Assembly (NCBI GenBank): GCA_028286835.1
Contig: JAQBQT010000027.1
Location: 14,442 to 78,441, forward strand
DNA from: Candidatus Parcubacteria bacterium
GTDB lineage: Bacteria > Patescibacteriota > Minisyncoccia > Phycocordibacterales > PALSA-1337
Direction: 5' to 3'
DNA: 64,000 bases
Part shown: positions 3,945 through 18,782 of the stretch, in pieces
How positions within the stretch are numbered: the first letter of the stretch is position 1
Layout of the letters: every line of letters starts with the position of its first letter
The notes under the pieces: model-generated
What the model was told of the DNA's origin: nothing
Seen by the model: the letters and a program-made list of their open reading frames with translations, nothing else
The model's database searches: none
Position numbers and translations under genes: made by a program

Positions 3945-5804
3945 CTATCCTAAGACAGCCTTGATGCGTCGAATGCCCTGTGAGATGGCTTCTTCCTTCT
4001 GGATCTTGAACTTCCACTTCCCTTCGGGACCTGCGAGTTCGGATGTATTCTTCACGTGAGGGCCGCCGCAGAATTCTTTTGAGTACGCGGAAGCGATATC
4101 GTTGCCGATGAAGTAAATGGAGATCTCGTCGCCATATTTTTCAGCAAAGAAATGGCGGGCGCCGGTCTTCTCGGCTTCGGCCTTCGGCATGGTGACCTGA
4201 TTCACGGGCATTTTGGCGGCTATCTTCTCGTTAATGATGTCCTCGACACGCTTCTTCTCATCGTCGGTCATCTTGGCTCCGTATGAAAAATCGAAACGCA
4301 GGCGCTCTGCGGTGATGTTGGATCCTTTCTGGCCCACTCCCTCTCCGAGCACGTCATGGAGGGCCTGATGCAGGAGGTGCGTCGCGGTGTGATAGCGGAC
4401 GACCTGAGGATCGTCGGCATTTGCGAGGCCGCCTTTGAATTTCTGCTCGGCGCCTGCGCGCGAGAGGTCTTGATGCTTCTTGAATTCCGCTTCGAAGGCC
4501 GCAGTGTCTACCGTCAGGCCTCTTTCTGCGGCAAGCTCCTTGGTCACGTCGATGGGCAGGCCGTATGAAGAGAAAAGAAGGAACGCATCAGCGCCTGAGA
4601 CATTGCCTGATACGGCGAGCCGGTCGAATTCCTTCATGCCATGTGCGAGAGCTTCGGCGAACTTGGTCGCTTCATCGAGCAGTACCTGCTTGATCGTGTC
4701 GGACTTCTGGGCGAGCTCCGGATATGCGACAAGGTATGTGTTCGTGAGCGTATCGACAAATTTTGAAATGCGTCCGGCATCGAGCTTCTTGTCCGTCATG
4801 CTTATGGTCGCGCGGCGGATGAGGCGGCGGAGGATGTATCCACGGTCTGTATTCGAAGGTATGACGCCGTCGGCGATGAGAAATGTGCTCGCGCGAAGGT
4901 GGTCGGCAATGACACGCTTGTTGCGCAGGCTCTGCGACGGATTCTTCATGAGGTCCATGACCGGTTTCAGGAGATCGGTGTCGTATATGTTGTCGACGCC
5001 TTGCAAGGTCATTGTCAGGCGCTCGAGGCCGGCACCGGTATCGACGGAAGGCTTCGGAAGCTTGCCGATGATCACGCCGTCCTTCTTCTCATATTGCATG
5101 AAGACGTCATTCCAGATCTCGATGATGTCGCGCACGTCGTCAGCCTGGACGTATTCGGCATGCGTAAGGGTCCTGCCGGCGAATTTTCCGGAGACGTCGT
5201 AGAACATCTCGGTGTCAGGGCCGCACGGGCCGTTGTCGCCTGCTTCCCACCAGTTGTTCTTGGCTGGCATATAGAAGATGCGGCCGGCTTCGCCCTGCGT
5301 CGTATCGCCTCCGGCATCGATGCGGTTCTTCTTGAAGATCTCGCGCCAGATGGCAGCCGCTTCGGTGTCGCGCGGAGCGACCGCATCGCCCTCGAATACG
5401 GTCACGTACAGGCGCTGAGGATCAAGGCCGAGGCCCTCTTCCTTGTTGGTCAGGAATTCATAGCTCCAGTTGATCGCCTCTTCCTTGAAATAATCGCCGA
5501 GGGACCAGTTGCCGAGCATCTCGAAGAACGTCGCGTGCGTCTTGTCACCTATGTCGTCTATGTCCACAGTGCGGAGGCATTTCTGGGCGTCCACGAGGCG
5601 GGTCCCGGCCGGGTGCTGCTTGCCGAGCAAGAAAGGCACGAGAGGCTGCATGCCTGCCGTATTGAAGAGGGTCGCGTTCGTTACGCCCTTCTCGTCAGGG
5701 GTGACAAGCGACGCGGACGGTATGACCGCATGCCCGCGCTTCTCGAAAAATGCCAGGAATCGAAGGCGTATTTCAGCCGATGTCATCGGCGAGATTGGGT
5801 TCAT
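3945..5804 (-). CDS. alaS: alanyl-tRNA synthetase, short form ending after the editing domain
   Basis: The AlaRS catalytic-core N-terminus is present (SAEIRLRFLAFFEKRGH...FNTAGMQPL). Editing-domain motifs are present (HTATHLLHQALHDVLG and CGGPHV). The 619-aa product ends at RRIKAVLG with no C-Ala domain. The likely true start is the internal Met at about 5786 (MTSAEIR). Confidence 0.9.
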   Translation of the reverse strand: MNPISPMTSAEIRLRFLAFFEKRGHAVIPSASLVTPDEKGVTNATLFNTAGMQPLVPFLLGKQHPAGTRLVDAQKCLRTVDIDDIGDKTHATFFEMLGNWSLGDYFKEEAINWSYEFLTNKEEGLGLDPQRLYVTVFEGDAVAPRDTEAAAIWREIFKKNRIDAGGDTTQGEAGRIFYMPAKNNWWEAGDNGPCGPDTEMFYDVSGKFAGRTLTHAEYVQADDVRDIIEIWNDVFMQYEKKDGVIIGKLPKPSVDTGAGLERLTMTLQGVDNIYDTDLLKPVMDLMKNPSQSLRNKRVIADHLRASTFLIADGVIPSNTDRGYILRRLIRRATISMTDKKLDAGRISKFVDTLTNTYLVAYPELAQKSDTIKQVLLDEATKFAEALAHGMKEFDRLAVSGNVSGADAFLLFSSYGLPIDVTKELAAERGLTVDTAAFEAEFKKHQDLSRAGAEQKFKGGLANADDPQVVRYHTATHLLHQALHDVLGEGVGQKGSNITAERLRFDFSYGAKMTDDEKKRVEDIINEKIAAKMPVNQVTMPKAEAEKTGARHFFAEKYGDEISIYFIGNDIASAYSKEFCGGPHVKNTSELAGPEGKWKFKIQKEEAISQGIRRIKAVLG

Positions 5805-7998: not shown

Positions 7999-8619
7999 TT
8001 ATGCAAACTTTTTTAAAATATGGAAGTCCGTTATGAGCGTCTCGCGCATGCCGCCATTGTAGAGCGCTGCGGCGGGATGATACAAGGTGATGATGGTGAC
8101 CGGATGGGACCCATGGTCCTCATCGAAATACGCTGTCTCGAATGTCTTGCCGTGGATCTTGCTGATGGGCTCCAATTCCAGGTCCAGATCATATCGCTGC
8201 ATGACATAGTTCATGCTGTGGCGCCCCAGCGTGGCGATGACCTTGGGCTGAATGATCTGCACCTGCCGGTCAAGGAATGGCGCATATAGGGCGATCTCTT
8301 CAGGCGTCGGATCGCGATTCTCAGGCGGGCGATCCTTGACCATGTTGGTAATGTAGACATCCTCGCGCTTGAGGCCGATAGAGGCGATGAGCTCATCGAG
8401 GAATTTCCCTGCAGCACCGCAGAAAGACCTCCCTGTCTTTGCTTCAGTCTGCCCGGGCGCTTCGCCGACGAACATGATGCTCGCATCGTGGCTCCCCTCC
8501 CCGATCACAGGGAAATATTTATTCCTGGTGCGATACTCATATAAGGGCGAGGCCTTGAATTCAAGAAGCTCGTCCCGGATCTTCTTCAGCTTTTCGTATT
8601 TGTCATTCTTGGTAGCCAT
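7999..8619 (-). CDS. uracil-DNA glycosylase, family 4/5 type
   Basis: The protein contains GEAPGQTE (the family-4 UDG motif GE[AG]PG) and a C-terminal HP motif (TLYHPAAAL). It is 206 aa. Confidence 0.8.
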   Translation of the reverse strand: MATKNDKYEKLKKIRDELLEFKASPLYEYRTRNKYFPVIGEGSHDASIMFVGEAPGQTEAKTGRSFCGAAGKFLDELIASIGLKREDVYITNMVKDRPPENRDPTPEEIALYAPFLDRQVQIIQPKVIATLGRHSMNYVMQRYDLDLELEPISKIHGKTFETAYFDEDHGSHPVTIITLYHPAAALYNGGMRETLITDFHILKKFA

Positions 8620-8649: not shown

Positions 8650-9534
8650 TTATTTCGCCTGCTGGACCACCGCCTGTGCCTCGGTCAGGATGCGCTCGAC
8701 TCCTTCCTCCTTTATGCCCACTTCGTGCAGCATCGAAGGCTTGCCGATGAGGTCTATGCAGGTCATGATGCCGCGTCCTATGATGTCGCGCTTCTCCTGA
8801 TGCGTGAGCGTAGTGAGAACCGTTATCGGATGGAGCCCGTTCCGTTCGATTATCTCATGGAGGTTGTCATGTTCCGGATAGTTCCAGGATATGAGGCGTA
8901 TGTTGTTGCAGGTCGCATACTTCACGGCCATGTCGGTGAACTTGGTGTTCGTGATGAGGTAGTGGCCTTCGGTCGAGATCTTTCGCTCCTTTTTTCCGTA
9001 ATCAAAGACAGTCTCGGCTATATCGTCAAAGCGTGCCTTCACATAGAGCGCTACTTTGAGATCTGACTTGAGGCCGAGAACGTTGTGGAACTTTGCTTCG
9101 GCCATGATGAGCTCGTCTCCCTTCCAGGCGACGACATCGATCTCGTGCGGCACACATACGCCCTGCACGATCTGGTCGGTGACGGCTTCATAGCCCCAGA
9201 GCTCGAATATGCGTGCGACAAATTTCTCGAACGGAAAGCCGTCAGGGCCGAGGTCGAAGAGCGCACGACGGATGGAGTATTTGACCGCAGTCGGCCGGTG
9301 ATATTTTCTGAGGAGCGAGAAGGCTTTGCTATAGATGTCGGTCGTGGACATGCCGTTCTCTAGCCCGTTCTCTATCTCGTCGGTGATGTCATCCACCACT
9401 TCCGGCGAGGTGCCGGCTCGCTTCAGGGAATTCTCCAGCTTCGCCTGATCGAATAACTCGGTGCTGCCGTCTGATTTGATGATGGAAACTGGGGTGCTCA
9501 TAGGGCAATTATAGGTATAAAGAGGCCAAAACAC
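8650..9534 (-). CDS. ATP-cone domain fused to an Mrr-like PD-(D/E)xK restriction-endonuclease domain
   Basis: The N-terminal region (VSIIKSDGSTELFDQAKLENSLKRAG...) resembles the ATP-cone of NrdR/RNR. The C-terminal region (FEKFVARIFELWGYEAV...HEIDVVAWKGDELIMAEAKFH) matches the Mrr_cat D...ExK core. The likely start is the internal Met at about 9501. Confidence 0.65.
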   Translation of the reverse strand: MFWPLYTYNCPMSTPVSIIKSDGSTELFDQAKLENSLKRAGTSPEVVDDITDEIENGLENGMSTTDIYSKAFSLLRKYHRPTAVKYSIRRALFDLGPDGFPFEKFVARIFELWGYEAVTDQIVQGVCVPHEIDVVAWKGDELIMAEAKFHNVLGLKSDLKVALYVKARFDDIAETVFDYGKKERKISTEGHYLITNTKFTDMAVKYATCNNIRLISWNYPEHDNLHEIIERNGLHPITVLTTLTHQEKRDIIGRGIMTCIDLIGKPSMLHEVGIKEEGVERILTEAQAVVQQAK

Positions 9535-9562
9535 AAAACAGCCGCCTGATGCGGCTCCTCTG

Positions 9563-10627
9563 CTACTCTACGATGCCTCCCCCCAGGCATCGTTCGCCGT
9601 CATAGGCCACGAATGATTGTCCCGGAGCGACCGCTTCGGGAGCATGCTCGAATTCAAGCTCGGCCGTATTCCCCTGCGCGGAGATCAGCCGGACATTTTC
9701 CAGCGGCTGTCGGTATCTGACCCTTCCCTGAAATACGTGGTTGATATGAGGCTCGCTGCCGATCCAATTCGTGCGCGAGAGCTTCACTCGTGCGCTTCCT
9801 GCCGACTCGGCAGCGATATCCTTCCTGTTCGAAACAGTGATGGTGTTCGCCTCGGCATCCTTGCCGATGACGTAGTAGGCCGCATCGTTCGGCGTCGTAT
9901 GCGCGACCGAAAAGCCCCGGCGCTCGCCGATGGTAAAAAGAAGCGCTCCAGGGTGCGTGCCTATCTCCTGCCCCGCTTCATTCAGAACCTTTCCGGGAAC
10001 GGCTGGGATGTAGTGCTGCAGGAATTCTTTCACGTCGATCTTGCCCATGAAGCAGAGGCCCTGGCTGTCTTTCTTCTCCGCATTCGGCAGGCCGAATTTC
10101 GCGGCGAGCTTGCGTACCTGGGGCTTAATGAGATGCCCTACCGGAAAAAGCACGTGCTTAAGATCATCCGGCGTGAGGGTCCACAAGAAATACGATTGAT
10201 CCTTGTTCGCATCCGCGCCCATGAAGAGCTTGCCGTCCTTGGTCTGAGCATAATGTCCGGTGGCGATATAGTCGGCTCCCTGTCCTTTCGCCCATTTCCA
10301 GAATGCACCGAATTTTATCTCGCGGTTGCACATGACGTCCGGGTTCGGCGTGCGGCCGGCGCGGTACTCGGCGATCATATAATCTATGACGCCCTGCTTG
10401 TATTCTTTTTCGAGATCGAGAGTCACGAATGGGATGTCGAGATGGGCGGCGGCGCGCATGGCATCGAGGCGCTCCTCGCGCCAATTGCATTCGATCCAGT
10501 CCGGCTGCCAGACTTTGATGAATACTCCAGTGACATCGTAGCCGGCTTTTTTGAGCAGGGCTGCAGAGACAGAGCTGTCGACTCCGCCTGACATCCCTAC
10601 AAATGCTTTTTTGCCTGAATGATTCAT
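9563..10627 (-). CDS. mnmA: tRNA-specific 2-thiouridylase MnmA
   Basis: The PP-loop SGGVDSS is present in AFVGMSGGVDSSVSAALL, and the 354-aa product has the MnmA pattern throughout. Confidence 0.9.
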   Translation of the reverse strand: MNHSGKKAFVGMSGGVDSSVSAALLKKAGYDVTGVFIKVWQPDWIECNWREERLDAMRAAAHLDIPFVTLDLEKEYKQGVIDYMIAEYRAGRTPNPDVMCNREIKFGAFWKWAKGQGADYIATGHYAQTKDGKLFMGADANKDQSYFLWTLTPDDLKHVLFPVGHLIKPQVRKLAAKFGLPNAEKKDSQGLCFMGKIDVKEFLQHYIPAVPGKVLNEAGQEIGTHPGALLFTIGERRGFSVAHTTPNDAAYYVIGKDAEANTITVSNRKDIAAESAGSARVKLSRTNWIGSEPHINHVFQGRVRYRQPLENVRLISAQGNTAELEFEHAPEAVAPGQSFVAYDGERCLGGGIVE

Positions 10628-11630: not shown

Positions 11631-12953
11631 TTATACGGGAAGATTGCCCGGAGCGGTGCCTTTCTTGGAAGGAACGCGGTCGAGGCTCGGAGTCGCGGCA
11701 ACTGAGCCCGGGAAGTGGTAGATAGTGGCGAGCTCTTCCGTATTCATGACCATAGTCTTGGATTTATACGGCGGATAGAAGGCTGAGCGGCGGCGATATG
11801 CCATGAGGACGCGCTTGGAATAATAATTGCGCTTCGTGTCCTTGTAATCCTCCCACGGATAATCAAGCTGGCCTGGGATCTGTTTGCCGCCTGGCTTGAA
11901 TCCATTCAGGTGCTCGGCATTGAATTGCTTCATGCTCGAAATGCAGCCGCCGATGCCGAACGGAGTGTCGAACGATGAGCGCTTGGCGATATAGAGGGCC
12001 CGGACGCACACGTCGAACGGCAGCTTGGTGAGCTTGCGCTCGATGGCCGTAACGATATCCTGTTCGCCGCCGGAAATGAGCGGACGCTTGGTGACGATCT
12101 TGGTCGTGCCGTCAGGATTCGTCTGAACCTCTTCAGTTCCTTGGAACTTGGACTTCGGGTCACGCATGAGGAGCTTGTCTATCTCCTTGGCCGTCTCCTC
12201 TCTGTAGAGGTCCGCCTTCGTCCAGAATGTTCCCGGCTTCTTCTGGTCCTTCTTGTGGGCGCGCACGACGAACTGGAACCATGCCTGCTCGTTCGGGCGC
12301 AGGCTGCCGAGCCACTCGATGAGATGGGTCAGAGGGTCGATCTTGAATTCTTCCTTGGGGTCCTTGTCGAGGCCATAGTCGACATAAGTCTTTATGGGAT
12401 AAGGGTTGGCTTTCGTGAATGCGAATTCAGATGCCCATATCTTCCAGACTTTCGGATCGAACTGCACTGACTTTGCATAGTCTTCCTGTTCCGAGATCTC
12501 GATGCCCGGGTACTGCGAATACAGCGCCGACATGAGATTGTTCTTGCGGCGGTCTTCGGTCCAGATCATGAATTTGACCTCGCCTTCGACGGACATGATC
12601 TCAAGCGAATACCATGGGCGGGTCTCGCCTTTCCAAAGCTGGGCGAATTCGCTTCCGTCTGACGTATTATGGAGGGCATGAAGAACAGTCTCCATTGCCA
12701 GGGGTGATTTGAAAGTGTCCTTGGGCAGTTTGAGCTCAAGCAGCGTGTATTTGATGCTATTGAAATTCTTCAGGCGCACATATCGCATCCATACGTTGCA
12801 GAATATGGCCGTAAGGCCGACCGCCATGAGTATTGGCGACACCGGGATGAAATAATGGAGGATGACGGGCAGGAGCGACGAGTTGAAAGCGCTACTCAGG
12901 AAGTTAGAAAGTTCCGCATAGGTCATGGGGAGAAGTATAGCAAAATAGAACAA
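11631..12953 (-). CDS. hypothetical membrane protein
   Basis: The 440-aa ORF has two N-terminal transmembrane helices and a large soluble domain. No Walker motifs were seen. It lies upstream of the sigma-70 region-4/HARE-HTH gene on the same strand. Confidence 0.55.
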   Translation of the reverse strand: MFYFAILLPMTYAELSNFLSSAFNSSLLPVILHYFIPVSPILMAVGLTAIFCNVWMRYVRLKNFNSIKYTLLELKLPKDTFKSPLAMETVLHALHNTSDGSEFAQLWKGETRPWYSLEIMSVEGEVKFMIWTEDRRKNNLMSALYSQYPGIEISEQEDYAKSVQFDPKVWKIWASEFAFTKANPYPIKTYVDYGLDKDPKEEFKIDPLTHLIEWLGSLRPNEQAWFQFVVRAHKKDQKKPGTFWTKADLYREETAKEIDKLLMRDPKSKFQGTEEVQTNPDGTTKIVTKRPLISGGEQDIVTAIERKLTKLPFDVCVRALYIAKRSSFDTPFGIGGCISSMKQFNAEHLNGFKPGGKQIPGQLDYPWEDYKDTKRNYYSKRVLMAYRRRSAFYPPYKSKTMVMNTEELATIYHFPGSVAATPSLDRVPSKKGTAPGNLPV

Positions 12954-13092: not shown

Positions 13093-14130
13093 TTAACCGA
13101 GTACCGAGTACTTGCTGTCCTTGTCGCGCTTGAAATACTTCGGATTCTGGAGGTTGACTGCGATGGTGTTCTCCTTGACGTAGCGCTCCTTCATGACCTT
13201 GGCGACTATCTCGTCCTTGGTGAGAGGCCCGCTCTTCTCGAGGATGTGCTTGATGACATCGCGGACGATGCCCGGAGAGTAGCCCCATTCTGCGAGAGCG
13301 TAGAGGCCGCGTCCGACGAGGACGAAGCGCTTATCCTTGATGAGCTCGTTGTGGGTCGTCGCTACATGGGCCTTCTTGTTGAAAAGCTTTTCGATCTGAG
13401 CGGCGACGTCGCGAAAGTGGATCGGCGATCCGTGCTTCCTGATGACGAGGAATGCGTAGTCGCGGACGCCCTTGGTGTGGATGTTCGATGAATTTGTCGC
13501 ACCCCATTCGCCGAGGGCGTTGCGTCCGATCTTCTTGGATATTGAAAGCCAGCGGCGCATGATCTCCTGGTTCTTATAGCGCTCTGAGACTTCCTCGAGG
13601 TGCTGGAGGAGGCGGTTGACCATCTCTGATTCAGGAAGAAGGTCCTCGCTTGAGAGATTTCCGTAGAGCTTCTGGAGGGCATCCTCGACTTTCTTGGCGA
13701 GGGCCTCATTCACGTGCCAGCGATGGCGGAAGTCGTCATCCTCGCGGCGCTTTTTGAAAGGCTCGCCGACCGACAACAGGAAATGGATATGATTCTGGAG
13801 GCCATGCTCCTTGGAGATGTGGCCGAGGAAGTCCTCTTCGACGACGACGCCTCCGAGGGAGTGGAGGAGGGTCTCGATCTCCGCGAAAGCTGCGCGCTCC
13901 TGCTTGAATTCGTCGGACTTGCGGATGACGCCGAGAGCGTAGTTCTCGATCTGGCGGACGCGCTCGCGAGTGATGCCGTATTTCTTGCCGATGGCGTCGA
14001 GGGTCATACGCTTCTCCTCCTTTCCGAGGCCGTAACGGAACACGATGATCTCGCGGGCGCGATCGGGCAATGAGGCCAAAAGGCGCTTCACGACCTGCTT
14101 TGGTTTGAACGATACGGGTGAGGTGGGCAT
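13093..14130 (-). CDS. sigma-70 region-4-like HTH protein with a C-terminal HARE-HTH domain
   Basis: The N-terminal region (LPDRAREIIVFRYGL...MTLDAIGKKYGITRERVRQIENYAL) matches the sigma-70 region 4 helix-turn-helix. The C-terminal region (RFVLVGRGLYALAEWGY) matches the HARE-HTH domain seen in the RNA polymerase delta subunit. No region 2 is present. Confidence 0.6.
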   Translation of the reverse strand: MPTSPVSFKPKQVVKRLLASLPDRAREIIVFRYGLGKEEKRMTLDAIGKKYGITRERVRQIENYALGVIRKSDEFKQERAAFAEIETLLHSLGGVVVEEDFLGHISKEHGLQNHIHFLLSVGEPFKKRREDDDFRHRWHVNEALAKKVEDALQKLYGNLSSEDLLPESEMVNRLLQHLEEVSERYKNQEIMRRWLSISKKIGRNALGEWGATNSSNIHTKGVRDYAFLVIRKHGSPIHFRDVAAQIEKLFNKKAHVATTHNELIKDKRFVLVGRGLYALAEWGYSPGIVRDVIKHILEKSGPLTKDEIVAKVMKERYVKENTIAVNLQNPKYFKRDKDSKYSVLG

Positions 14131-14187: not shown

Positions 14188-17100
14188 TTATGCCGTTACT
14201 ATGTTGACGAGCTTCCCGGGCACCGCTATGACTCTCTGAATTACCTTGTCCTTGAGCCATTTTTCGGCCTCCGGAGCCGATTTTGCCGCCTTTTCGAGCT
14301 CCTCCTTCCCCGCCCCGGAAGGGGCAATAAACGACCCCCTGGTCTTGCCGTTTATCTGCAGAATGATGGTGGCTGTAGCCTCGACTAGAAGCGCGGGATC
14401 GAAGATCGGCCACTCCGAAACGTGAACGGATTTCTTGTTGCCGATATCAGTCCAAAGCTCTTCGGTCACGTGCGGCGCGAAGGGTGCGAGGAGCTTCAGA
14501 TACGTCTCTAGAGTATGGCGGTCCAGGCTCTCGCTCTTTTCGAGCTCGTTGAGCGCGATCATCAGCGTGCTGATGGCGGTATTGAAACGCAGGGACTGAA
14601 TGTCATCCGTGACCTTCTTTATGGCCTTGTGAAGGATGCGGTCATTCTCTGCCGAACTCTTCCCCGCGCCGACCCTCTCAGCTAGTTTCCAAACCCGCTC
14701 GATGAAGCGTCTCGATCCCACCATGCTCTGGGTGCTCCAGGCGATGGCCTGATCGAACGGGCCCATGAACATCTCATATATGCGCAGCGTGTCGGCGCCG
14801 AATTGCTTCACAATGTCGTCCGGATTGACCACATTGCCGAAACGCTTGGACATCTTCCTGCCGTCTTCGGCCATGATGAGCCCGACCGACTGCAATTTCT
14901 TGAATGGTTCGATGCCTGATACCGCTCCGATGTCATACAGGAATTTATGCCAGAAGCGTGCGTAGATGAGGTGGCGTGTGGCATGCTCCGCTCCGCCCAC
15001 GTAAAGGTCGACTGGCGACCAATATTTCTCTTTTGCCGGATCGACGAAGGCCTTCTTGTTATCCGGGTCCATGAATCGCAGGTAATACCAGGAAGATCCC
15101 GCCCACTGCGGCATGGTGTTCGTTTCGCGTTTGGCTTTTCCTTTGCACTGTGGGCACTTCACATTGACCCAGGAATCGATGGCCGCGAGCGGCGACTCGC
15201 CTGTTCCGGTCGGCTCATAGAATTTCACTTTCGGGAGCTTCACAGGCAGATCCTTTTCAGGCACTGCGACCACTCCGCATTCCGGGCAGTGGATGAGCGG
15301 TATCGGCTCGCCCCAATATCGCTGGCGCGAGAAGACCCAGTCGCGGAGCTTGTACTTCACGACTTTCTTCCCGTATTTCTGGACCATCTCCTCCTTGTCT
15401 TCAAGCTTTGTGTCGATAATGGGCAGGTTGTAGACCTTGGCAAACTGGGCATCGCGCTCGTCATGCGAAGGCACTGCCATGACTGCTCCAGTGGCGTAAT
15501 CCGCCAGCACATAGTCCGCTATCCATACAGGAACCTTCTCTCCATTGGCGGGATTGATGGCGCAAAGGCCCTTGAGCTCGACGCCGGTTTTTTCTTTTGT
15601 GCCATCAGTGCGTTCTATGTCGGTCTTTGATTTGGCCCGATCGATGTACGCCTCAACTTCTGCCCTATTGTCTATAAGATCGAGGAATTCCTTCACCCAA
15701 AAATGCTCGGGGGCAAGAACGAGATATGTCACGCCGAAGATGGTGTCCGGACGGGTGGTGAAGACTGCGGCCTTCGGAGTGCAGCATTCGAGGATGGATG
15801 GTTCTTGGGCGCCAGTGAAGTGTTTCTCTACTGCGTCGACTTCGATAACGCCTGCTGATAGCTTCGTACCAAGGTATTTTATGTATTCTGAACGATGAAT
15901 CTCTTTGGTATCAGAGAGGAGTGCGATCCTGCCGCTTGTGAGCTTTTTGATCTGCTCAAAGTCATAGTTCCATGAGAAGTTTGAATGATACGGTCGCTCC
16001 TTTGACTCCTTATTGAAATTCGGTTCGATCGCAGGCGCTACTAAGACCAAGCCGGAGATCTGCTTATTTGATTTCATCAGCGCCTTTAGGGCAGAAACGC
16101 AGCCGAGGCTATGCGCGATGATCACAGTGTTTTTGTCTAACGTGCAGTTCTTGAGGATGAAGTCGACTTGCTCGCTCTCTTTTGGATCATTCGGATTCGG
16201 CAAAGCCGGCGCCTGGACTTCATGACCCTTCTTCTCAAATTCCGTCTTGAGCCATGGGAAGAAATCATCAGCCGGACTTCCTTTGTATCCATGGATGAGC
16301 ACATAGCGTGACTTTTTCTTTGTCAGAGCGAGCTCGAAATCGATCTCAGCCCCTTCGCTCCTTCCGATCCAATTGCGCTGGGCTTCCTTGATCGATTCGG
16401 GCCATTCGAGGAGCGGCTTGATCTCCTGCTTCTTCGCGCCGGTATACAGATCCCAGAGGTACTTCATGTCCTCATGATTGAGGAACTTCTGAACTTCCGC
16501 AGGTGAAAGCCACATCGGATCCTGGAGGTCTTTCTCTTCCTGCGATATATCGGTGCGCTCCCCGTCCTTCAATTCAAAATATCCGCAGACATAATGGGCA
16601 TGACGATTGACTTGTTTGATCACCTGGTAGAAACGGGTGTCCACCTTTCCGACTTCCCTGACGAACCGGACGTTTTTGAAACCAGTCTCTTCTTGTATCT
16701 CGCGTACTCCTGCCGTTCCCATATCTTCGCCTTTCTCGATGCCGCCTATCACAAAGCCCTGCCAGTTGGTGGCTTTCCAGTTCACGCACAGGTATTTGTC
16801 TTCGGACCAATGCCTGATGATGCACACAGCCGCATCACGTTCGATGAACGGCTCGTTTTCATGCGCGGCGCCCTTGCCTTCTCTGGCCGTTACGACCGGT
16901 ATTCCGCCTGTCGCATCGAGGTCCTTGAGCAGCCTGTCAGCATAGTCAGTGATCTTCAGGACCCACTGCCTCATCGGCTTCTTTTCGACGAGCGTGCCGC
17001 AGCGCTCGCATCGGCCGTCCTCAACGTCCTCATTGGCGAGGACCGTCTTATCCGTCGGGCACCAGTTCACTGGCTCGAATGACTCGAAGGCTAAGCCCTT

Positions 17101-17580
17101 CTTGAACATCTGCAAAAAGATCCATTGGGTCCACTTATAGAACTTGGGGTCGGTCGTGTTGACCTCGCGGGACCAATCATAGTCGAAGCCCAAGAGCTCA
17201 AGCTGCTCTTTATAGTGCGCGACGTTCTTGGCGACGGAATCAGCTGGGTTGGTCTTGGTCTTGATGGCGTAGTTCTCGGCGGGCAGGCCGAATGCGTCGA
17301 AGCCCATGGGATGGAGCACATTCATGCCCTGCATGCGCTTCATGCGCGATACGACATCGGTCGCTATATAGCCTTTCGGATGGCCGACATGGAGACCCTC
17401 GCCCGACGGATATGGGAACATGTCGAGCACATAGAATTTGTCCTTGGCGTCCTTGGATTCGGTCGAGCGGTAGACCTTCGACGATGCCCATTTCTTCTGC
17501 CACTTCTTTTCTATCTTGGCCGGGTCATAGGCTTCCTTGGCGGCGCGGGCAGGCGTGGGTTTCTTCATGGCTTCAATCAT
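14188..17580 (-). CDS. leuS: leucyl-tRNA synthetase with two inserted enzymatic domains (NUDIX and serine hydrolase)
   Basis: The class I HIGH motif (HVGHPKGY) and the LeuRS editing-domain motif TTRPDT are present in the 1130-aa product. The additional ~190 aa at residues 225-392 carry a NUDIX box, and those at residues 418-603 carry an IHGY...HSLGC serine-hydrolase region; see the findings. Confidence 0.9.
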   Translation of the reverse strand: MIEAMKKPTPARAAKEAYDPAKIEKKWQKKWASSKVYRSTESKDAKDKFYVLDMFPYPSGEGLHVGHPKGYIATDVVSRMKRMQGMNVLHPMGFDAFGLPAENYAIKTKTNPADSVAKNVAHYKEQLELLGFDYDWSREVNTTDPKFYKWTQWIFLQMFKKGLAFESFEPVNWCPTDKTVLANEDVEDGRCERCGTLVEKKPMRQWVLKITDYADRLLKDLDATGGIPVVTAREGKGAAHENEPFIERDAAVCIIRHWSEDKYLCVNWKATNWQGFVIGGIEKGEDMGTAGVREIQEETGFKNVRFVREVGKVDTRFYQVIKQVNRHAHYVCGYFELKDGERTDISQEEKDLQDPMWLSPAEVQKFLNHEDMKYLWDLYTGAKKQEIKPLLEWPESIKEAQRNWIGRSEGAEIDFELALTKKKSRYVLIHGYKGSPADDFFPWLKTEFEKKGHEVQAPALPNPNDPKESEQVDFILKNCTLDKNTVIIAHSLGCVSALKALMKSNKQISGLVLVAPAIEPNFNKESKERPYHSNFSWNYDFEQIKKLTSGRIALLSDTKEIHRSEYIKYLGTKLSAGVIEVDAVEKHFTGAQEPSILECCTPKAAVFTTRPDTIFGVTYLVLAPEHFWVKEFLDLIDNRAEVEAYIDRAKSKTDIERTDGTKEKTGVELKGLCAINPANGEKVPVWIADYVLADYATGAVMAVPSHDERDAQFAKVYNLPIIDTKLEDKEEMVQKYGKKVVKYKLRDWVFSRQRYWGEPIPLIHCPECGVVAVPEKDLPVKLPKVKFYEPTGTGESPLAAIDSWVNVKCPQCKGKAKRETNTMPQWAGSSWYYLRFMDPDNKKAFVDPAKEKYWSPVDLYVGGAEHATRHLIYARFWHKFLYDIGAVSGIEPFKKLQSVGLIMAEDGRKMSKRFGNVVNPDDIVKQFGADTLRIYEMFMGPFDQAIAWSTQSMVGSRRFIERVWKLAERVGAGKSSAENDRILHKAIKKVTDDIQSLRFNTAISTLMIALNELEKSESLDRHTLETYLKLLAPFAPHVTEELWTDIGNKKSVHVSEWPIFDPALLVEATATIILQINGKTRGSFIAPSGAGKEELEKAAKSAPEAEKWLKDKVIQRVIAVPGKLVNIVTA

Positions 17581-17651: not shown

Positions 17652-18782
17652 CTATCCTTTTAGGGCCAGATCAGCCTCGCTCAGCTTCACCGGTATGAAG
17701 AGCCGAGTATTCTGATTCATGGTACCCGCGGCTATTTCCAATCGAGGCATCTTGAATGCATGATCAAGCTTCTTAAGCCTGTCCAACTCTTCCTTGACGA
17801 CGTTGTGCAGGAAGTTGGCACGTGAACGGGCCTCGAATTCTGCGCGCTTGCGCTGCGGACCTGTCTCGTCGCGAAAAACTGAAGAAGCCACCAAAAGAAG
17901 ACCGTCTCCTTTGGATATCTTTCCTTGCTTCAGATTTGAAAACAGAATGCTGCACGCTACTTGTATGTGCTTGGCCTTTCCGTCATTGAAGGGACCGACA
18001 ATGAGCATCTGATTCGGCTGGTGATGCCAGTCGAACCCTCTACCGTAGCCGAGGATATTTTCTTTATGGTCGATATCCGCTATGGGCCGATTGATCTTGC
18101 GAACTTCAGCGATATGCCTGACGTTGCCGACGCAGAGCGGAATGAGGCTTTCGATCTTGTCCCGGGTCATGTCCGGATACAATTCCTCTAGCTTCATACG
18201 CAGAGATATGGGGTCTTCAGTGCCGACTTCCGACAAGTCCAGCTTCTTTCCATTGTTGCCATGGAATACCAGCGAATCCTCGTCAGTTTCGATGCCGACT
18301 TGAATGGGATGAACTATTCCATGATCGGCGCCAAATATGTCCTCGATGTCGCGAACAGTACCCTGCGTGTAGGAACGAGCCGCTTTGACATCGCAGCTGA
18401 AACCTTTGCATCCACGGTGGGCAGGATCGCCTTTTGACCAATGATAGGTCACGAGGACGATCGAGCCTGACCGGCCGCTCTCAATGCCGTGATTGATCCA
18501 TTCGGCTAGCACCGCTCCAAACTCGCTTCCGAGGTCGAATTTGCCGCCCAGATCCCGGTATGGCTGAATGATGCCAAGGGGCGTCTGTGTCATGACAGCC
18601 ATGTTGATGCGGCCATCCATGCACTTAAGAGCTGCTATCTGGGCCGTATACGTCTTCCGGTACTGGCGCCTCAAGAGCGTCTGCCCAGGTTCCGTGTATT
18701 TGTTGCTCTGTTCCCGATTGTATTTCAGGAACGAGGTGCTGATCGAATGTGATGTAGGCATAAGGATAAAGTTGCGGTTCAA
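17652..18782 (-). CDS. hypothetical protein with weak beta-carbonic-anhydrase-like motifs
   Basis: The 376-aa ORF contains CMDGR, then G-x6-R-x2-G, then HRGCKG, which loosely recalls the CxDxR...HxxCG zinc ligands of beta-carbonic anhydrase. The functional call is weak. Confidence 0.5.
   Translation of the reverse strand: MNRNFILMPTSHSISTSFLKYNREQSNKYTEPGQTLLRRQYRKTYTAQIAALKCMDGRINMAVMTQTPLGIIQPYRDLGGKFDLGSEFGAVLAEWINHGIESGRSGSIVLVTYHWSKGDPAHRGCKGFSCDVKAARSYTQGTVRDIEDIFGADHGIVHPIQVGIETDEDSLVFHGNNGKKLDLSEVGTEDPISLRMKLEELYPDMTRDKIESLIPLCVGNVRHIAEVRKINRPIADIDHKENILGYGRGFDWHHQPNQMLIVGPFNDGKAKHIQVACSILFSNLKQGKISKGDGLLLVASSVFRDETGPQRKRAEFEARSRANFLHNVVKEELDRLKKLDHAFKMPRLEIAAGTMNQNTRLFIPVKLSEADLALKG

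Follow-up and report, generated by a model that had tools for sequence, protein, structure and literature searches.

A predicted ATP-cone-gated nuclease of the AF1548 family in a Candidatus Parcubacteria genome

ATP-cones are the ATP/dATP switches of ribonucleotide reductases (RNRs) and of the repressor NrdR, and the question raised by the locus studied here is what such a sensor might do when it is joined to a nuclease. The gene lies on the minus strand of a 64,000-nucleotide stretch of Candidatus Parcubacteria DNA (the window), where a preliminary description had marked an open reading frame at 8650..9534, recognized in it an ATP-cone and an Mrr-type catalytic domain, and suggested a nucleotide-pool-gated DNase, for example one activated during phage infection. 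The open reading frame is present there, with both peptides quoted from it (SIIKSDGSTELFDQAKLENSLKRAG and HEIDVVAWKGDELIMAEAKFH) lying inside. Considering the gene model, the domains, the relatives and the genomic surroundings of this protein, we read it as, most likely, a nuclease gated by adenine nucleotides and acting in nucleic-acid turnover or repair.

Gene model and domain architecture

The coding sequence likely starts at the ATG at 9501 and encodes 283 aa (8650..9501, minus strand, from the list of open reading frames; stop codon, 8650-8652), rather than at the GTG at 9534, which had been taken as the start of a 294-aa protein; the 11-codon extension between them (9502..9534, minus strand) is probably untranslated. 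Homologues are 281 to 283 aa long, orthologues begin at the ATG, and NCBI holds a 100% identical protein of 283 aa (P0001, [quoted passage not shown]). Moreover, a TATAAT -10-like box read from the sequence (9508..9513, minus strand) ends 6 nt upstream of the ATG, within the supposed extension, and a TATAAT/TATACT box with at most one mismatch occurs in 51 of 63 orthologous loci, in most of which it ends 6 to 8 nt ahead of the start. This arrangement suggests that the box is the gene's own promoter and that the mRNA may be leaderless or near-leaderless; the generic promoter scan missed the box because the -35 element is weak. The upstream neighbor mnmA (tRNA 2-thiouridylase; 9563..10627, minus strand; Pfam tRNA_Me_trans domains) is closed by an intrinsic-terminator-like hairpin and T-run (9540..9556, minus strand), which the terminator scan gave as AGCCGCATCAGGCGGCT, then GTTTTGTGTT. 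Downstream, a family-4 uracil-DNA glycosylase (UDG) gene (7999..8619, minus strand; Pfam UDG; NCBIfam UDG_fam4, 196 bits against a cutoff of 125) follows after 30 nt, and the terminator scan found no terminator between the two genes, which are probably co-transcribed. The two neighbors had thus been named correctly, and the description of the gene as standalone is borne out by its promoter-like box and by the mnmA terminator that precedes it, but not on the side of the closely spaced UDG gene.

The N-terminal domain (residues ∼5 to 83; 9253..9489, minus strand) was matched by the Pfam ATP-cone profile PF03477 at residues 6 to 77 (E = 5.6e-10, 40.1 bits against a cutoff of 25.8), which argues against a generic helical extension, and the same profile was found in all 60 full-length family members. 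In an AlphaFold2 model of the protein, compact and predicted with confidence (pLDDT 96.2, pTM 0.90), this region adopts a β-hairpin plus helical-bundle fold superposable on the cones of RNRs and NrdR: Foldseek returned both kinds of cone at probability 1.0, ranking after PDB entry 1Y88 (see below), with matches that included the NrdR structures 9FVR, 9FXK, 7P37, and 9GEX and several rmsd values of 1.7 to 2.7 Å over 82 to 88 columns. The family profile also aligns with the cones of Prevotella copri NrdD and Escherichia coli NrdR. Conservation was assessed in 488 homologues from Patescibacteria, Archaea, Bacteroidota/Chlamydiota, and other lineages, among which the ligand-contact positions K9 (codon 9475-9477), K21, T53, and Y75 are kept at 99%, 98%, 95%, and 99%, respectively, a basic residue (K/R) stands at positions 74 and 78 in ∼100%, and G12 belongs to the same 95 to 100% conserved set. 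Position 10 is the exception: the canonical Arg after K9 is Ser in the window protein, most bacterial members have Ala or Ser there, and only about half of the archaeal ones retain the Arg. The cone shares with RNRs (class I/II/III) and NrdR the N-terminal motif hKxxGxxExFxxxKh and the conserved Tyr of the last helix, but differs from them in this unconserved Arg and in its output domain, which is a nuclease where theirs is a reductase or a zinc-ribbon DNA binder. In none of the loci examined was an RNR or NrdR gene linked to the nuclease gene, and family HMMs detected no second ATP-cone and no second family copy in the window. An NrdR-like transcription factor was ruled out, the nuclease active site being invariant.

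The central domain (residues ∼84 to 211; 8869..9252, minus strand) carries the PD-(D/E)xK nuclease core. The Pfam profile Mrr_cat (PF04471) matched residues 88 to 139 only marginally, with 22.0 bits against a cutoff of 21, and reached 23.4 bits with the isolated C-terminal 200 aa; among 61 diverse family members it was found in all at E ≤ 0.1 (best E = 1.3e-11), accompanied by Hjc-like Pfam matches in 26 and weak Card1_endonuc matches in 8. Eight residues (E92, E120, D122, E135, K137, R157, D160, and N185) are 100% conserved in the 488 sequences, including the catalytic ones, whose codons were confirmed in the window sequence (E92, 9226-9228; D122, 9136-9138; E135, 9097-9099; K137, 9091-9093; minus strand), so that no loss of the catalytic D/E/K residues is seen in the alignment. 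Mrr restriction enzymes are defined by an N-terminal winged-helix reader of modified DNA, Mrr_N, for which Pfam gave no match here, the N terminus being the ATP-cone; the earlier term "Mrr-type" is therefore apt for the catalytic fold and not for the enzyme.

A third part, overlooked when the protein was described as having two, is an AF1548-like C-terminal helical domain (residues ∼212 to 283; 8653..8868, minus strand), which the 1Y88 alignment covers. PF22357 (AF1548-like_C) matched residues 225 to 279 at 22.3 bits, just below its cutoff of 23.9, and was found in 54 of the 61 family members at E ≤ 0.1 (best E = 9e-27). The 488 sequences all share W206 and P225, weak HHH_5 matches occurred in 4 of the 61 members, and the domain is possibly a helix-hairpin-helix-like nucleic-acid-binding module. 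We have high confidence in the three-domain architecture and in the predicted catalytic competence of the protein, in which a nucleotide sensor with cone contacts conserved at 95 to 100% appears to be joined to an active nuclease.

The AF1548 family and its genomic context

The closest relative of known structure is AF1548 of Archaeoglobus fulgidus (1Y88), found by phmmer among PDB sequences at E = 2e-30 and by the family profile at E = 4e-52 (residues 93 to 279 in both cases), and also the top Foldseek match (E = 1.9e-18, TM 0.76/0.82). Among the papers found, only the GOS study predicts AF1548 to be a nuclease, and the catalytic triad predicted there aligns with D122, E135, and K137 (PMC1821046). 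The two proteins share the same D...ExK residues and the same C-terminal domain, but the crystallized 1Y88 chain begins "...HM-VARLLEE" and so includes neither the ATP-cone nor the invariant GPxGFxFE motif that bears the first catalytic Glu. A 265-aa Archaeoglobus protein (P0272), 99% identical to AF1548, carries both the cone and the motif, and the crystallized AF1548 is a truncated member of the ATP-cone nuclease family. Since AF1548 has no assigned function, this homology transfers structure and not role.

PF03477, PF04471, and PF22357 also occur together in one protein in the archaeal AF1548 relatives, and the fusion is near-universal in the family, forming its standard architecture. The family comprises at least 423 clusters (50% identity, E ≤ 1e-30), and the members among the best 150 of these are nearly all full length at ∼275 to 290 aa; a word-index search scored 6,551 clusters at 90% identity. 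Members were found in Patescibacteria, Bacteroidota, Chlamydiota, Archaeoglobi, and DPANN archaea, the taxon being known for only a minority of 1,151 clusters. Database entries already label them "ATP cone domain-containing protein" or "restriction endonuclease." A literature search returned no functional study of the family and nothing on ATP-cone nucleases or the Usp/β-CASP/phosphorylase cluster described below.

In the window, the gene belongs to a housekeeping array in the order mnmA, ATP-cone nuclease gene, family-4 UDG gene, and, a few genes on, alaS. Across 80 orthologous Paceibacteria loci, mnmA lies within four genes upstream in 70 (directly adjacent in 46) and the UDG gene lies downstream in 45 (directly adjacent in 30); 10 loci have a PDDEXK_1 nuclease gene at +1, and 3 have one for a NUDIX protein. 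The mean identity to the window orthologue is 57%, compared with 59.5% for mnmA, 62.6% for UDG, and 63.6% for AlaRS, and the rank correlations of its divergence with these three are positive (0.31 to 0.70); the gene diverges at housekeeping rates. Synteny retained among related genomes may reflect inertia and not function. Two DPANN lineages, like Paceibacteria, have alaS near the gene, possibly by chance.

Other lineages offered a different neighborhood. In a metagenome scan that used a 12-sequence alignment (A2) as the query, 33 of 56 Bacteroidota/Chlamydiota loci with at least 2 kb of downstream sequence contained a co-directional β-CASP nuclease gene within five genes downstream, and 11 of the 56 contained genes for this nuclease, an AMP-phosphorylase-like enzyme, and phosphoribosyl pyrophosphate (PRPP) synthetase together. 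Pontibacter, Criblamydia, and a Bacteroidota MAG carry, in this order, the gene itself, a β-CASP MBL gene, a thymidine/AMP-phosphorylase family gene, and a PRPP synthetase gene, the partners being identified from NCBIfam and the phosphorylase being of the TIGR02645 type; moreover, tandem Usp genes stand upstream in 24 of 54 loci. Neither the window nor any of the 80 Paceibacteria loci yielded a β-CASP, phosphorylase, PRPP-synthetase, AAA_28, or Usp homologue in BLAST. Repair genes occur nearby in single loci, namely those for endonuclease V and Prim-Pol in Hadesarchaea, Pur_DNA_glyco in Aenigmatarchaeota, Hjc in Geoglobus, and an AddA-like helicase-nuclease in the L177 locus. The archaeal contexts are lineage specific and uninformative, and in every lineage sampled the neighbors are housekeeping or metabolic genes.

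Proposed nucleotide gating and the competing explanations

Gating of the nuclease by nucleotides is probable given the conserved cone and active site. In RNRs and NrdR, binding of ATP or dATP governs activity via oligomerization (PMC4390871). In the mechanism favored here, for which we infer ligand binding, the kind of substrate (DNA or RNA), and the sign of regulation alike, the cone would bind ATP and/or dATP, ligand binding would alter the oligomeric state or domain packing as it does in those proteins, and this change would turn nuclease activity on or off. Held by the C-terminal helical domain, cellular or imported nucleic acid would be cleaved in a manner set by adenine-nucleotide status; the cuts would leave 5'-phosphate ends, opening the products to exonucleases and thereby feeding nucleotide recycling. 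The cone could instead be a structural or oligomerization module that has lost nucleotide sensing, leaving the nuclease constitutive or regulated in another way, for which the replacement of the canonical KR Arg by Ser or Ala would speak, as would a review noting that some RNR cones detected by Pfam are non-functional in activity regulation (PMC4390871). We regard this as improbable, because conservation of K9, K21, T53, Y75, and the basic positions 74 and 78 over clades that share only 35 to 40% identity is hard to explain without ligand binding.

The defense-related explanations fare poorly on the genomic evidence. In the reading that grew out of the preliminary description, the protein is an anti-phage DNase of the abortive-infection type, set off by disturbed ATP/dNTP pools during infection, and its layout does resemble that of the CARF nucleases Can2, Card1, and Cdn1 of type III CRISPR signaling, in which a small-molecule sensor likewise precedes a PD-(D/E)xK nuclease. 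The nuclease domains of these enzymes are the nearest structural neighbors after 1Y88 in Foldseek, Card1_endonuc gave the weak matches mentioned above, and the β-CASP partner has type VII CRISPR Cas14 as its best NCBIfam match, yet at 392 bits, far under the cutoff of 800. Only the nuclease domains superpose, however, at the fold level (TM ∼0.4), no CRISPR or defense context exists here, and the sensor is an ATP-cone and not a CARF domain (for which Pfam gave no match), so that the presumed ligand is a primary metabolite and not cyclic oligoadenylate. In PADLOC-DB v2 the protein itself had no significant match (best PDC-S02, E = 0.0047, 14 bits), and the sole match among 10 neighbors linked a sigma-70 region-4 protein to MzaA. 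No relatives were found among 50,697 phage records or in IMG/VR contigs, BFVD yielded no full-length structural match, and only 2 of 72,556 plasmids carry the family. With a fixed core-genome position and housekeeping-like divergence in Paceibacteria, and with conserved partners outside them that are metabolic or stress genes and not defense genes, such a DNase seems very unlikely. A classical restriction endonuclease (type IV of the Mrr kind, or an orphan type II enzyme) would account for the Mrr_cat match and for the name that some database entries bear, and the catalytic fold and motif are those of Mrr type IV enzymes. The protein differs from these enzymes, however, in having an ATP-cone and AF1548-like_C in place of the Mrr_N winged helix, with no other reader domain for modified DNA, and its gene behaves as a strongly conserved core gene rather than a mobile or defense gene. 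The reported lack of a methyltransferase in the window was upheld over ∼12 kb 5' and 8 kb 3' of the gene (in the minus-strand sense), a span smaller than the whole window, and none turned up among those recurrent neighbor clusters of the 80 orthologous loci that were annotated, or among the genes annotated in 15 loci from other lineages. A restriction enzyme is thus highly improbable, and the protein very probably belongs to neither defense nor restriction-modification.

The choice between repair and turnover is closer in the evidence that bears on it. The protein could be a DNA-repair or structure-specific endonuclease tuned to dNTP/ATP supply and partnering the family-4 UDG and other base-damage enzymes, as the frequent UDG neighbor, its 30-nt spacing in the window, the PDDEXK_1 and NUDIX genes, the archaeal and L177 repair genes, the weak HhH-type C-terminal matches, and the Hjc-like matches would all allow. 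Every one of these repair associations is lineage specific, however, a repair gene within five genes is not rare by chance in genomes so small, and no repair partner is kept across phyla, whereas the β-CASP partner is; moreover, XPF/Mus81-type and other repair nucleases are not near the top of the Foldseek list. We therefore consider such a repair endonuclease unlikely. An analogy with XPF/Mus81 (nuclease plus HhH2) was dropped after Foldseek gave no XPF-type match. A role in turnover and recycling is proposed because of the conserved Bacteroidota/Chlamydiota operon, in which the gene is followed by those for the β-CASP nuclease, the AMP-phosphorylase-like enzyme, and PRPP synthetase. These partners and Usp being absent from the window and from the 80 Paceibacteria loci, the role is extrapolated across ∼40% identity, and the UDG, PDDEXK_1, and NUDIX neighbors in Paceibacteria fit DNA repair or nucleotide sanitation at least equally well; for the Patescibacteria genome studied here, recycling as the specific role can be put forward only tentatively, by analogy. 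Taken as a whole, an ATP-cone-gated nuclease that cuts nucleic acid according to adenine-nucleotide status, and not for restriction or against phages, is the best explanation that we can offer, held with somewhat less than even confidence.

Implications for nucleotide economy

A bolder form of the nucleotide-gated reading, which is speculative and on balance rather unlikely, would have the AF1548-family ATP-cone nuclease sense adenylates and guard the entry to an undescribed route that leads from nucleic acids to nucleotides. When ATP or dATP fell, the nuclease would nick RNA or DNA, the partner β-CASP exonuclease would free nucleoside monophosphates (NMPs), and the AMP-phosphorylase-like enzyme and PRPP synthetase would turn these into bases and activated pentose; the same switch would control nucleic-acid scavenging in genome-reduced CPR bacteria and DPANN archaea. 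If this were true, regulation of a nuclease by an ATP-cone would be without known precedent.

More generally, the family looks like a part of core nucleic-acid metabolism and not of phage defense or restriction, and the label "restriction endonuclease" should not be applied to its members. The only solved structure, 1Y88, is without the sensor and is missing one of the invariant catalytic residues, a Glu; this may explain twenty years without an assigned role. Cultivable Bacteroidota members (Pontibacter, Chitinophaga, and Psychroserpens) make genetics possible. Patescibacteria and DPANN archaea are thought to depend on scavenged nucleotides, and the family, being well conserved in both, thus offers a tractable entry to their nucleotide economy. 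A conserved and catalytically intact nuclease under ATP-cone control would extend the logic of the cone from the synthesis of DNA precursors to the cutting of nucleic acids.

Gene model, domains and predicted fold

The ORF of the preliminary description was present on the minus strand (8650 to 9534), with both quoted peptides inside it. Its GTG start at 9534 (294 aa) was displaced by the ATG at 9501 (283 aa), which is almost certainly the true start, considering that the identical NCBI protein and nearly all close homologues have 281 to 283 aa, that a TATAAT −10 box read from the sequence (9508 to 9513, minus strand) falls within the supposed N-terminal extension, and that a TATAAT or TATACT box precedes the gene in 51 of 63 orthologous loci from Paceibacteria. 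This conserved box mostly ends 6 to 8 nt before the ATG, and no Shine-Dalgarno sequence is visible ahead of the gene in the window, which together suggest a conserved leaderless or near-leaderless transcript. The box was also frequently TG-extended among orthologues. A terminator scan placed a terminator-like hairpin closing mnmA at 9556 to 9540 (minus strand), and the family gene has its own −10 box downstream of this hairpin; a gap of 30 nt, containing no terminator, leads to the uracil-DNA glycosylase (UDG) gene.

Pfam analysis recovered, both above cutoff and in one protein, the ATP-cone (PF03477, residues 6 to 77, E = 5.6e-10, 40.1 bits against a curated cutoff of 25.8) and the Mrr-type catalytic domain (Mrr_cat, PF04471, residues 88 to 139, 22.0 bits against 21) that had been proposed. 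The two-part description was incomplete in that it missed a third domain, AF1548-like_C (PF22357, residues 225 to 279), matched at 22.3 bits, below the cutoff of 23.9. Moreover, AF1548 of Archaeoglobus fulgidus (1Y88) was the sole protein found by phmmer among all PDB sequences (E = 2e-30, residues 93 to 279). An AlphaFold2 model built from 116 homologues (mean pLDDT 96.2, pTM 0.90) confidently predicted a compact three-domain fold, for which Foldseek ranked 1Y88 at the top, followed by a long series of NrdR and ribonucleotide reductase (RNR) ATP-cones with a probability of 1.0; for the nuclease domain, those of Can2, Card1 and Cdn1 were the nearest solved neighbors after 1Y88. By every testable criterion, the protein belongs to the ATP-cone, PD-(D/E)xK/Mrr_cat fold and AF1548 families. 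Assignment as an Mrr-type restriction enzyme, a restriction-modification system, a known defense system or a CARF nuclease was tested and not borne out.

Four sets of family sequences, 488 in total, were aligned to assess residue conservation: close homologues from Patescibacteria, representatives at 50% identity, archaeal AF1548 relatives, and relatives from Bacteroidota/Chlamydiota. Identity between the sets is only 35 to 40%. Nuclease residues E92, E120, D122, E135, K137, R157, D160 and N185 were 100% conserved, and the catalytic triad predicted for AF1548 in the GOS paper (PMC1821046) corresponds to D122, E135 and K137 in the phmmer alignment. In the cone, K9, G12, K21, T53 and Y75 were 95 to 99% conserved, and positions 74 and 78 were Lys or Arg in every member; the family profile aligned over the same motif to the cones of Prevotella copri NrdD and Escherichia coli NrdR. 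The Arg that follows Lys in canonical cones is Ser in the window protein; of the archaeal members, only about half keep Arg. Retention of both residue sets across clades this distant speaks for a nuclease that is active and has kept nucleotide binding. Two nuclease-domain cysteines, C116 and C198, were 98% conserved across all clades.

A 265-aa Archaeoglobus member (P0272; locus L085, 7001 to 7798), 99% identical to AF1548, has a canonical VRKRDG cone and the invariant GPxGFxFE motif, while the crystallized 1Y88 chain starts "...HM-VARLLEE", past both. Thus, 1Y88 is a truncated construct that has neither the sensor nor the first invariant Glu, and the deposited ORF appears to be cut short at its N terminus.

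A housekeeping array in Patescibacteria

Across 80 species-level Patescibacteria loci, the family gene lies in a co-directional array composed of a sigma-like protein, a 440-aa protein of unknown function, MltG/YceG, mnmA, the family gene, a family-4 UDG, further genes (often including pepF) and alaS. mnmA occurred at most four genes upstream in 70 of the 80 loci (immediate neighbor in 46), and UDG was downstream in 45 (immediate neighbor in 30). The mean orthologue identity to the window protein was 57% for the family gene, compared with 59.5% for mnmA, 62.6% for UDG, 63.6% for AlaRS and 46% for MltG; given these similar values and the positive rank correlations (0.31 to 0.70) between its divergence and that of its neighbors, the family gene co-diverges with housekeeping genes at a housekeeping rate. 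Annotation of the window from position 394 (8 kb downstream, in the minus-strand sense) to 32.5 kb (23 kb upstream) included ribosomal protein S13, AlaRS, PepF, LeuRS, YchF, G6PD, Ddl, PyrF, UvrC and UvrA. A PDDEXK_1 nuclease, a NUDIX protein and a polysaccharide deacetylase recurred as extras in the 80 loci.

Several neighbors deserve mention in their own right, all on the minus strand. alaS (3945 to 5804) was only a few genes from the family gene in 35 of the 80 loci, and likewise in Aenigmatarchaeota and Nanoarchaeota (L172, L173 and L176), a proximity that may be due to chance in small genomes. Conserved array members included a 345-aa protein (13093 to 14130) with N-terminal Sigma70 region 4 and a HARE-HTH domain, and the 440-aa protein (11631 to 12953), without Pfam or PADLOC matches. 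The 1,130-aa leucyl-tRNA synthetase (14188 to 17580) is an unusual composite enzyme with an insertion inside its catalytic domain that matched NUDIX (residues 251 to 372, 45 bits) and serine-hydrolase/alpha-beta-hydrolase (residues 426 to 520, 49 bits) domains, and a 376-aa protein (17652 to 18782) weakly matched the catalytic domain of carboxysome-shell carbonic anhydrase (CsoSCA_cat, 23.3 bits against a cutoff of 21.5).

Distribution and genomic context in other lineages

An exhaustive search of 1.84 billion cluster representatives yielded 1,151 clusters at E ≤ 1e-3, of which 423 reached E ≤ 1e-30; nearly all of the best 150 of the 1,151 had 275 to 290 aa and matched over the full length. 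Word-index searches scored 3,435 and 6,551 clusters at 90% identity. Among 61 diverse members, Pfam detected Mrr_cat in all 61, ATP-cone in 60 of the 60 full-length proteins, AF1548-like_C in 54 and, weakly, HHH_5 in four. The fusion is the standard architecture of the family rather than peculiar to the window genome. Named members came from Patescibacteria (Paceibacteria, Taylorbacteria and others), Bacteroidota (Pontibacter, Chitinophaga, Psychroserpens and Saprospiraceae), Chlamydiota (Criblamydia and Chlamydiia MAGs), Archaeoglobi (Archaeoglobus, Geoglobus and Ferroglobus), Hadesarchaea, Aenigmatarchaeota and Nanoarchaeota. Public databases already list the architecture, under the names "ATP cone domain-containing protein," "restriction endonuclease," "Restriction endonuclease/ATP cone domain" or "Holliday junction resolvase-like predicted endonuclease," and the window gene is an unremarkable orthologue; the searchable literature yielded no functional work on any member.

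One gene order was shared by a Pontibacter actiniarum plasmid, a Criblamydia sequanensis plasmid and one Bacteroidota MAG: the ATP-cone nuclease, a beta-CASP metallo-beta-lactamase (MBL) hydrolase (∼456 aa), a thymidine-phosphorylase-family protein (∼500 aa) and a ribose-phosphate pyrophosphokinase (∼297 aa). According to NCBIfam, the first partner is closest to the Cas14 and aCPSF1 beta-CASP ribonucleases, below their cutoffs; the second matched TIGR02645/PRK04350 above cutoff and the AMP phosphorylase model at 486 bits, under its cutoff of 535; and the third falls into the PRK07199 PRPP-synthetase subfamily. Among 78 metagenomic loci of the Bacteroidota/Chlamydiota clade, 56 had at least 2 kb of downstream sequence, and the beta-CASP gene was co-directional and at most five genes downstream in 33 of these, with all three partners together in 11; tandem universal stress protein (Usp) genes lay upstream in 24 of 54 loci. 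Other recurrent neighbors were 2-hydroxyacid dehydrogenase, phosphofructokinase, MgtC, ion channels, P-type ATPases and AAA_28 proteins. Taken as a whole, the gene set resembles a stress or energy-limitation cluster with a module leading from nucleic acid through NMPs to base plus pentose phosphate.

The co-directional order of tandem Usp, ATP-cone nuclease, beta-CASP MBL, TIGR02645-type phosphorylase and PRK07199-type PRPP synthetase spanned L087, L088, L091 and L092 to L171 (Bacteroidota and Chlamydiota), and small proteins without Pfam matches (84, 132, 137 and 218 aa) recurred beside the Usp/nuclease/beta-CASP genes. In Psychroserpens ponticola (L090), two genes from the family gene (+2), one ORF caller joined AAA_28 and a beta-CASP MBL in a 643-aa ORF, and the collection's gene calls gave only a 153-aa AAA_28 gene in the same stretch, leaving the fusion a candidate; in six other loci, stand-alone AAA_28 genes occurred together with the family gene.

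In archaea, the gene is chromosomal, in surroundings that are lineage specific. In three Archaeoglobi (L081, L083 and L085), the family gene begins at or before the stop codon of the preceding membrane-protein gene, which varies by genus (an amino-acid permease with a Usp domain, CorA or MscS). The gene lies near DJ-1, a Glu-synthase-like gene, DHH phosphoesterase and alaS in Aenigmatarchaeota, and near Endonuclease V and Prim-Pol in a Hadesarchaea MAG; in another bacterial lineage, it is flanked by mraY and an addA-like gene.

Proposed mechanism and biological role

The PD-(D/E)xK site and the cone are intact, and the gene behaves as part of the core genome. Neither the anti-phage DNase of the preliminary description nor a mobile-element role found support, be it in this housekeeping behavior or in database searches. 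PADLOC returned nothing meaningful for the protein and, for 10 neighbors, only a match of sigma-70 region 4 to MzaA; no relative was found by tblastn in 50,697 phage records and no member by an IMG/VR motif scan, and all matches in BFVD were partial, to a viral RNR cone or to a viral Mrr-like nuclease, with none combining the two. Only 2 of 72,556 plasmids (those of P. actiniarum and C. sequanensis) carried a member.

We favor adenylate-gated nucleic-acid turnover feeding nucleotide recycling, since the sole partners conserved across phyla point that way. Cleavage by PD-(D/E)xK enzymes leaves 5′-phosphate ends, which would be suited to a 5′-3′ beta-CASP exonuclease, and the family nuclease would pass such ends to its beta-CASP partner. 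CPR bacteria are thought to depend on nucleoside and nucleotide salvage (PMC5113843). The main rival is a repair nuclease partnering the probably co-transcribed UDG. None of the beta-CASP, phosphorylase, PRPP-synthetase, AAA_28 or Usp partners was found in the window or the 80 Paceibacteria loci; for the Patescibacteria subfamily, the present evidence fits turnover and repair alike.

In the proposed mechanism, ATP and/or dATP would bind to the cone and the nucleic acid to the C-terminal helical domain, the part of the protein that gave the weak HHH_5 matches. Nucleotide binding by the cones of RNRs and NrdR shifts oligomeric state or domain packing (PMC4390871), and a similar change may gate cleavage here. 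The closest working analogy is offered by Can2, Card1 and Cdn1, whose ligand-binding domain controls their PD-(D/E)xK domain, a likeness of logic only and not of family membership. Nuclease control is outside the characterized uses of the ATP-cone. The fusion is real, conserved and testable, its specific role being what we infer; allosteric control by ATP-cones and ligand gating of PD-(D/E)xK nucleases are known separately but not in combination.
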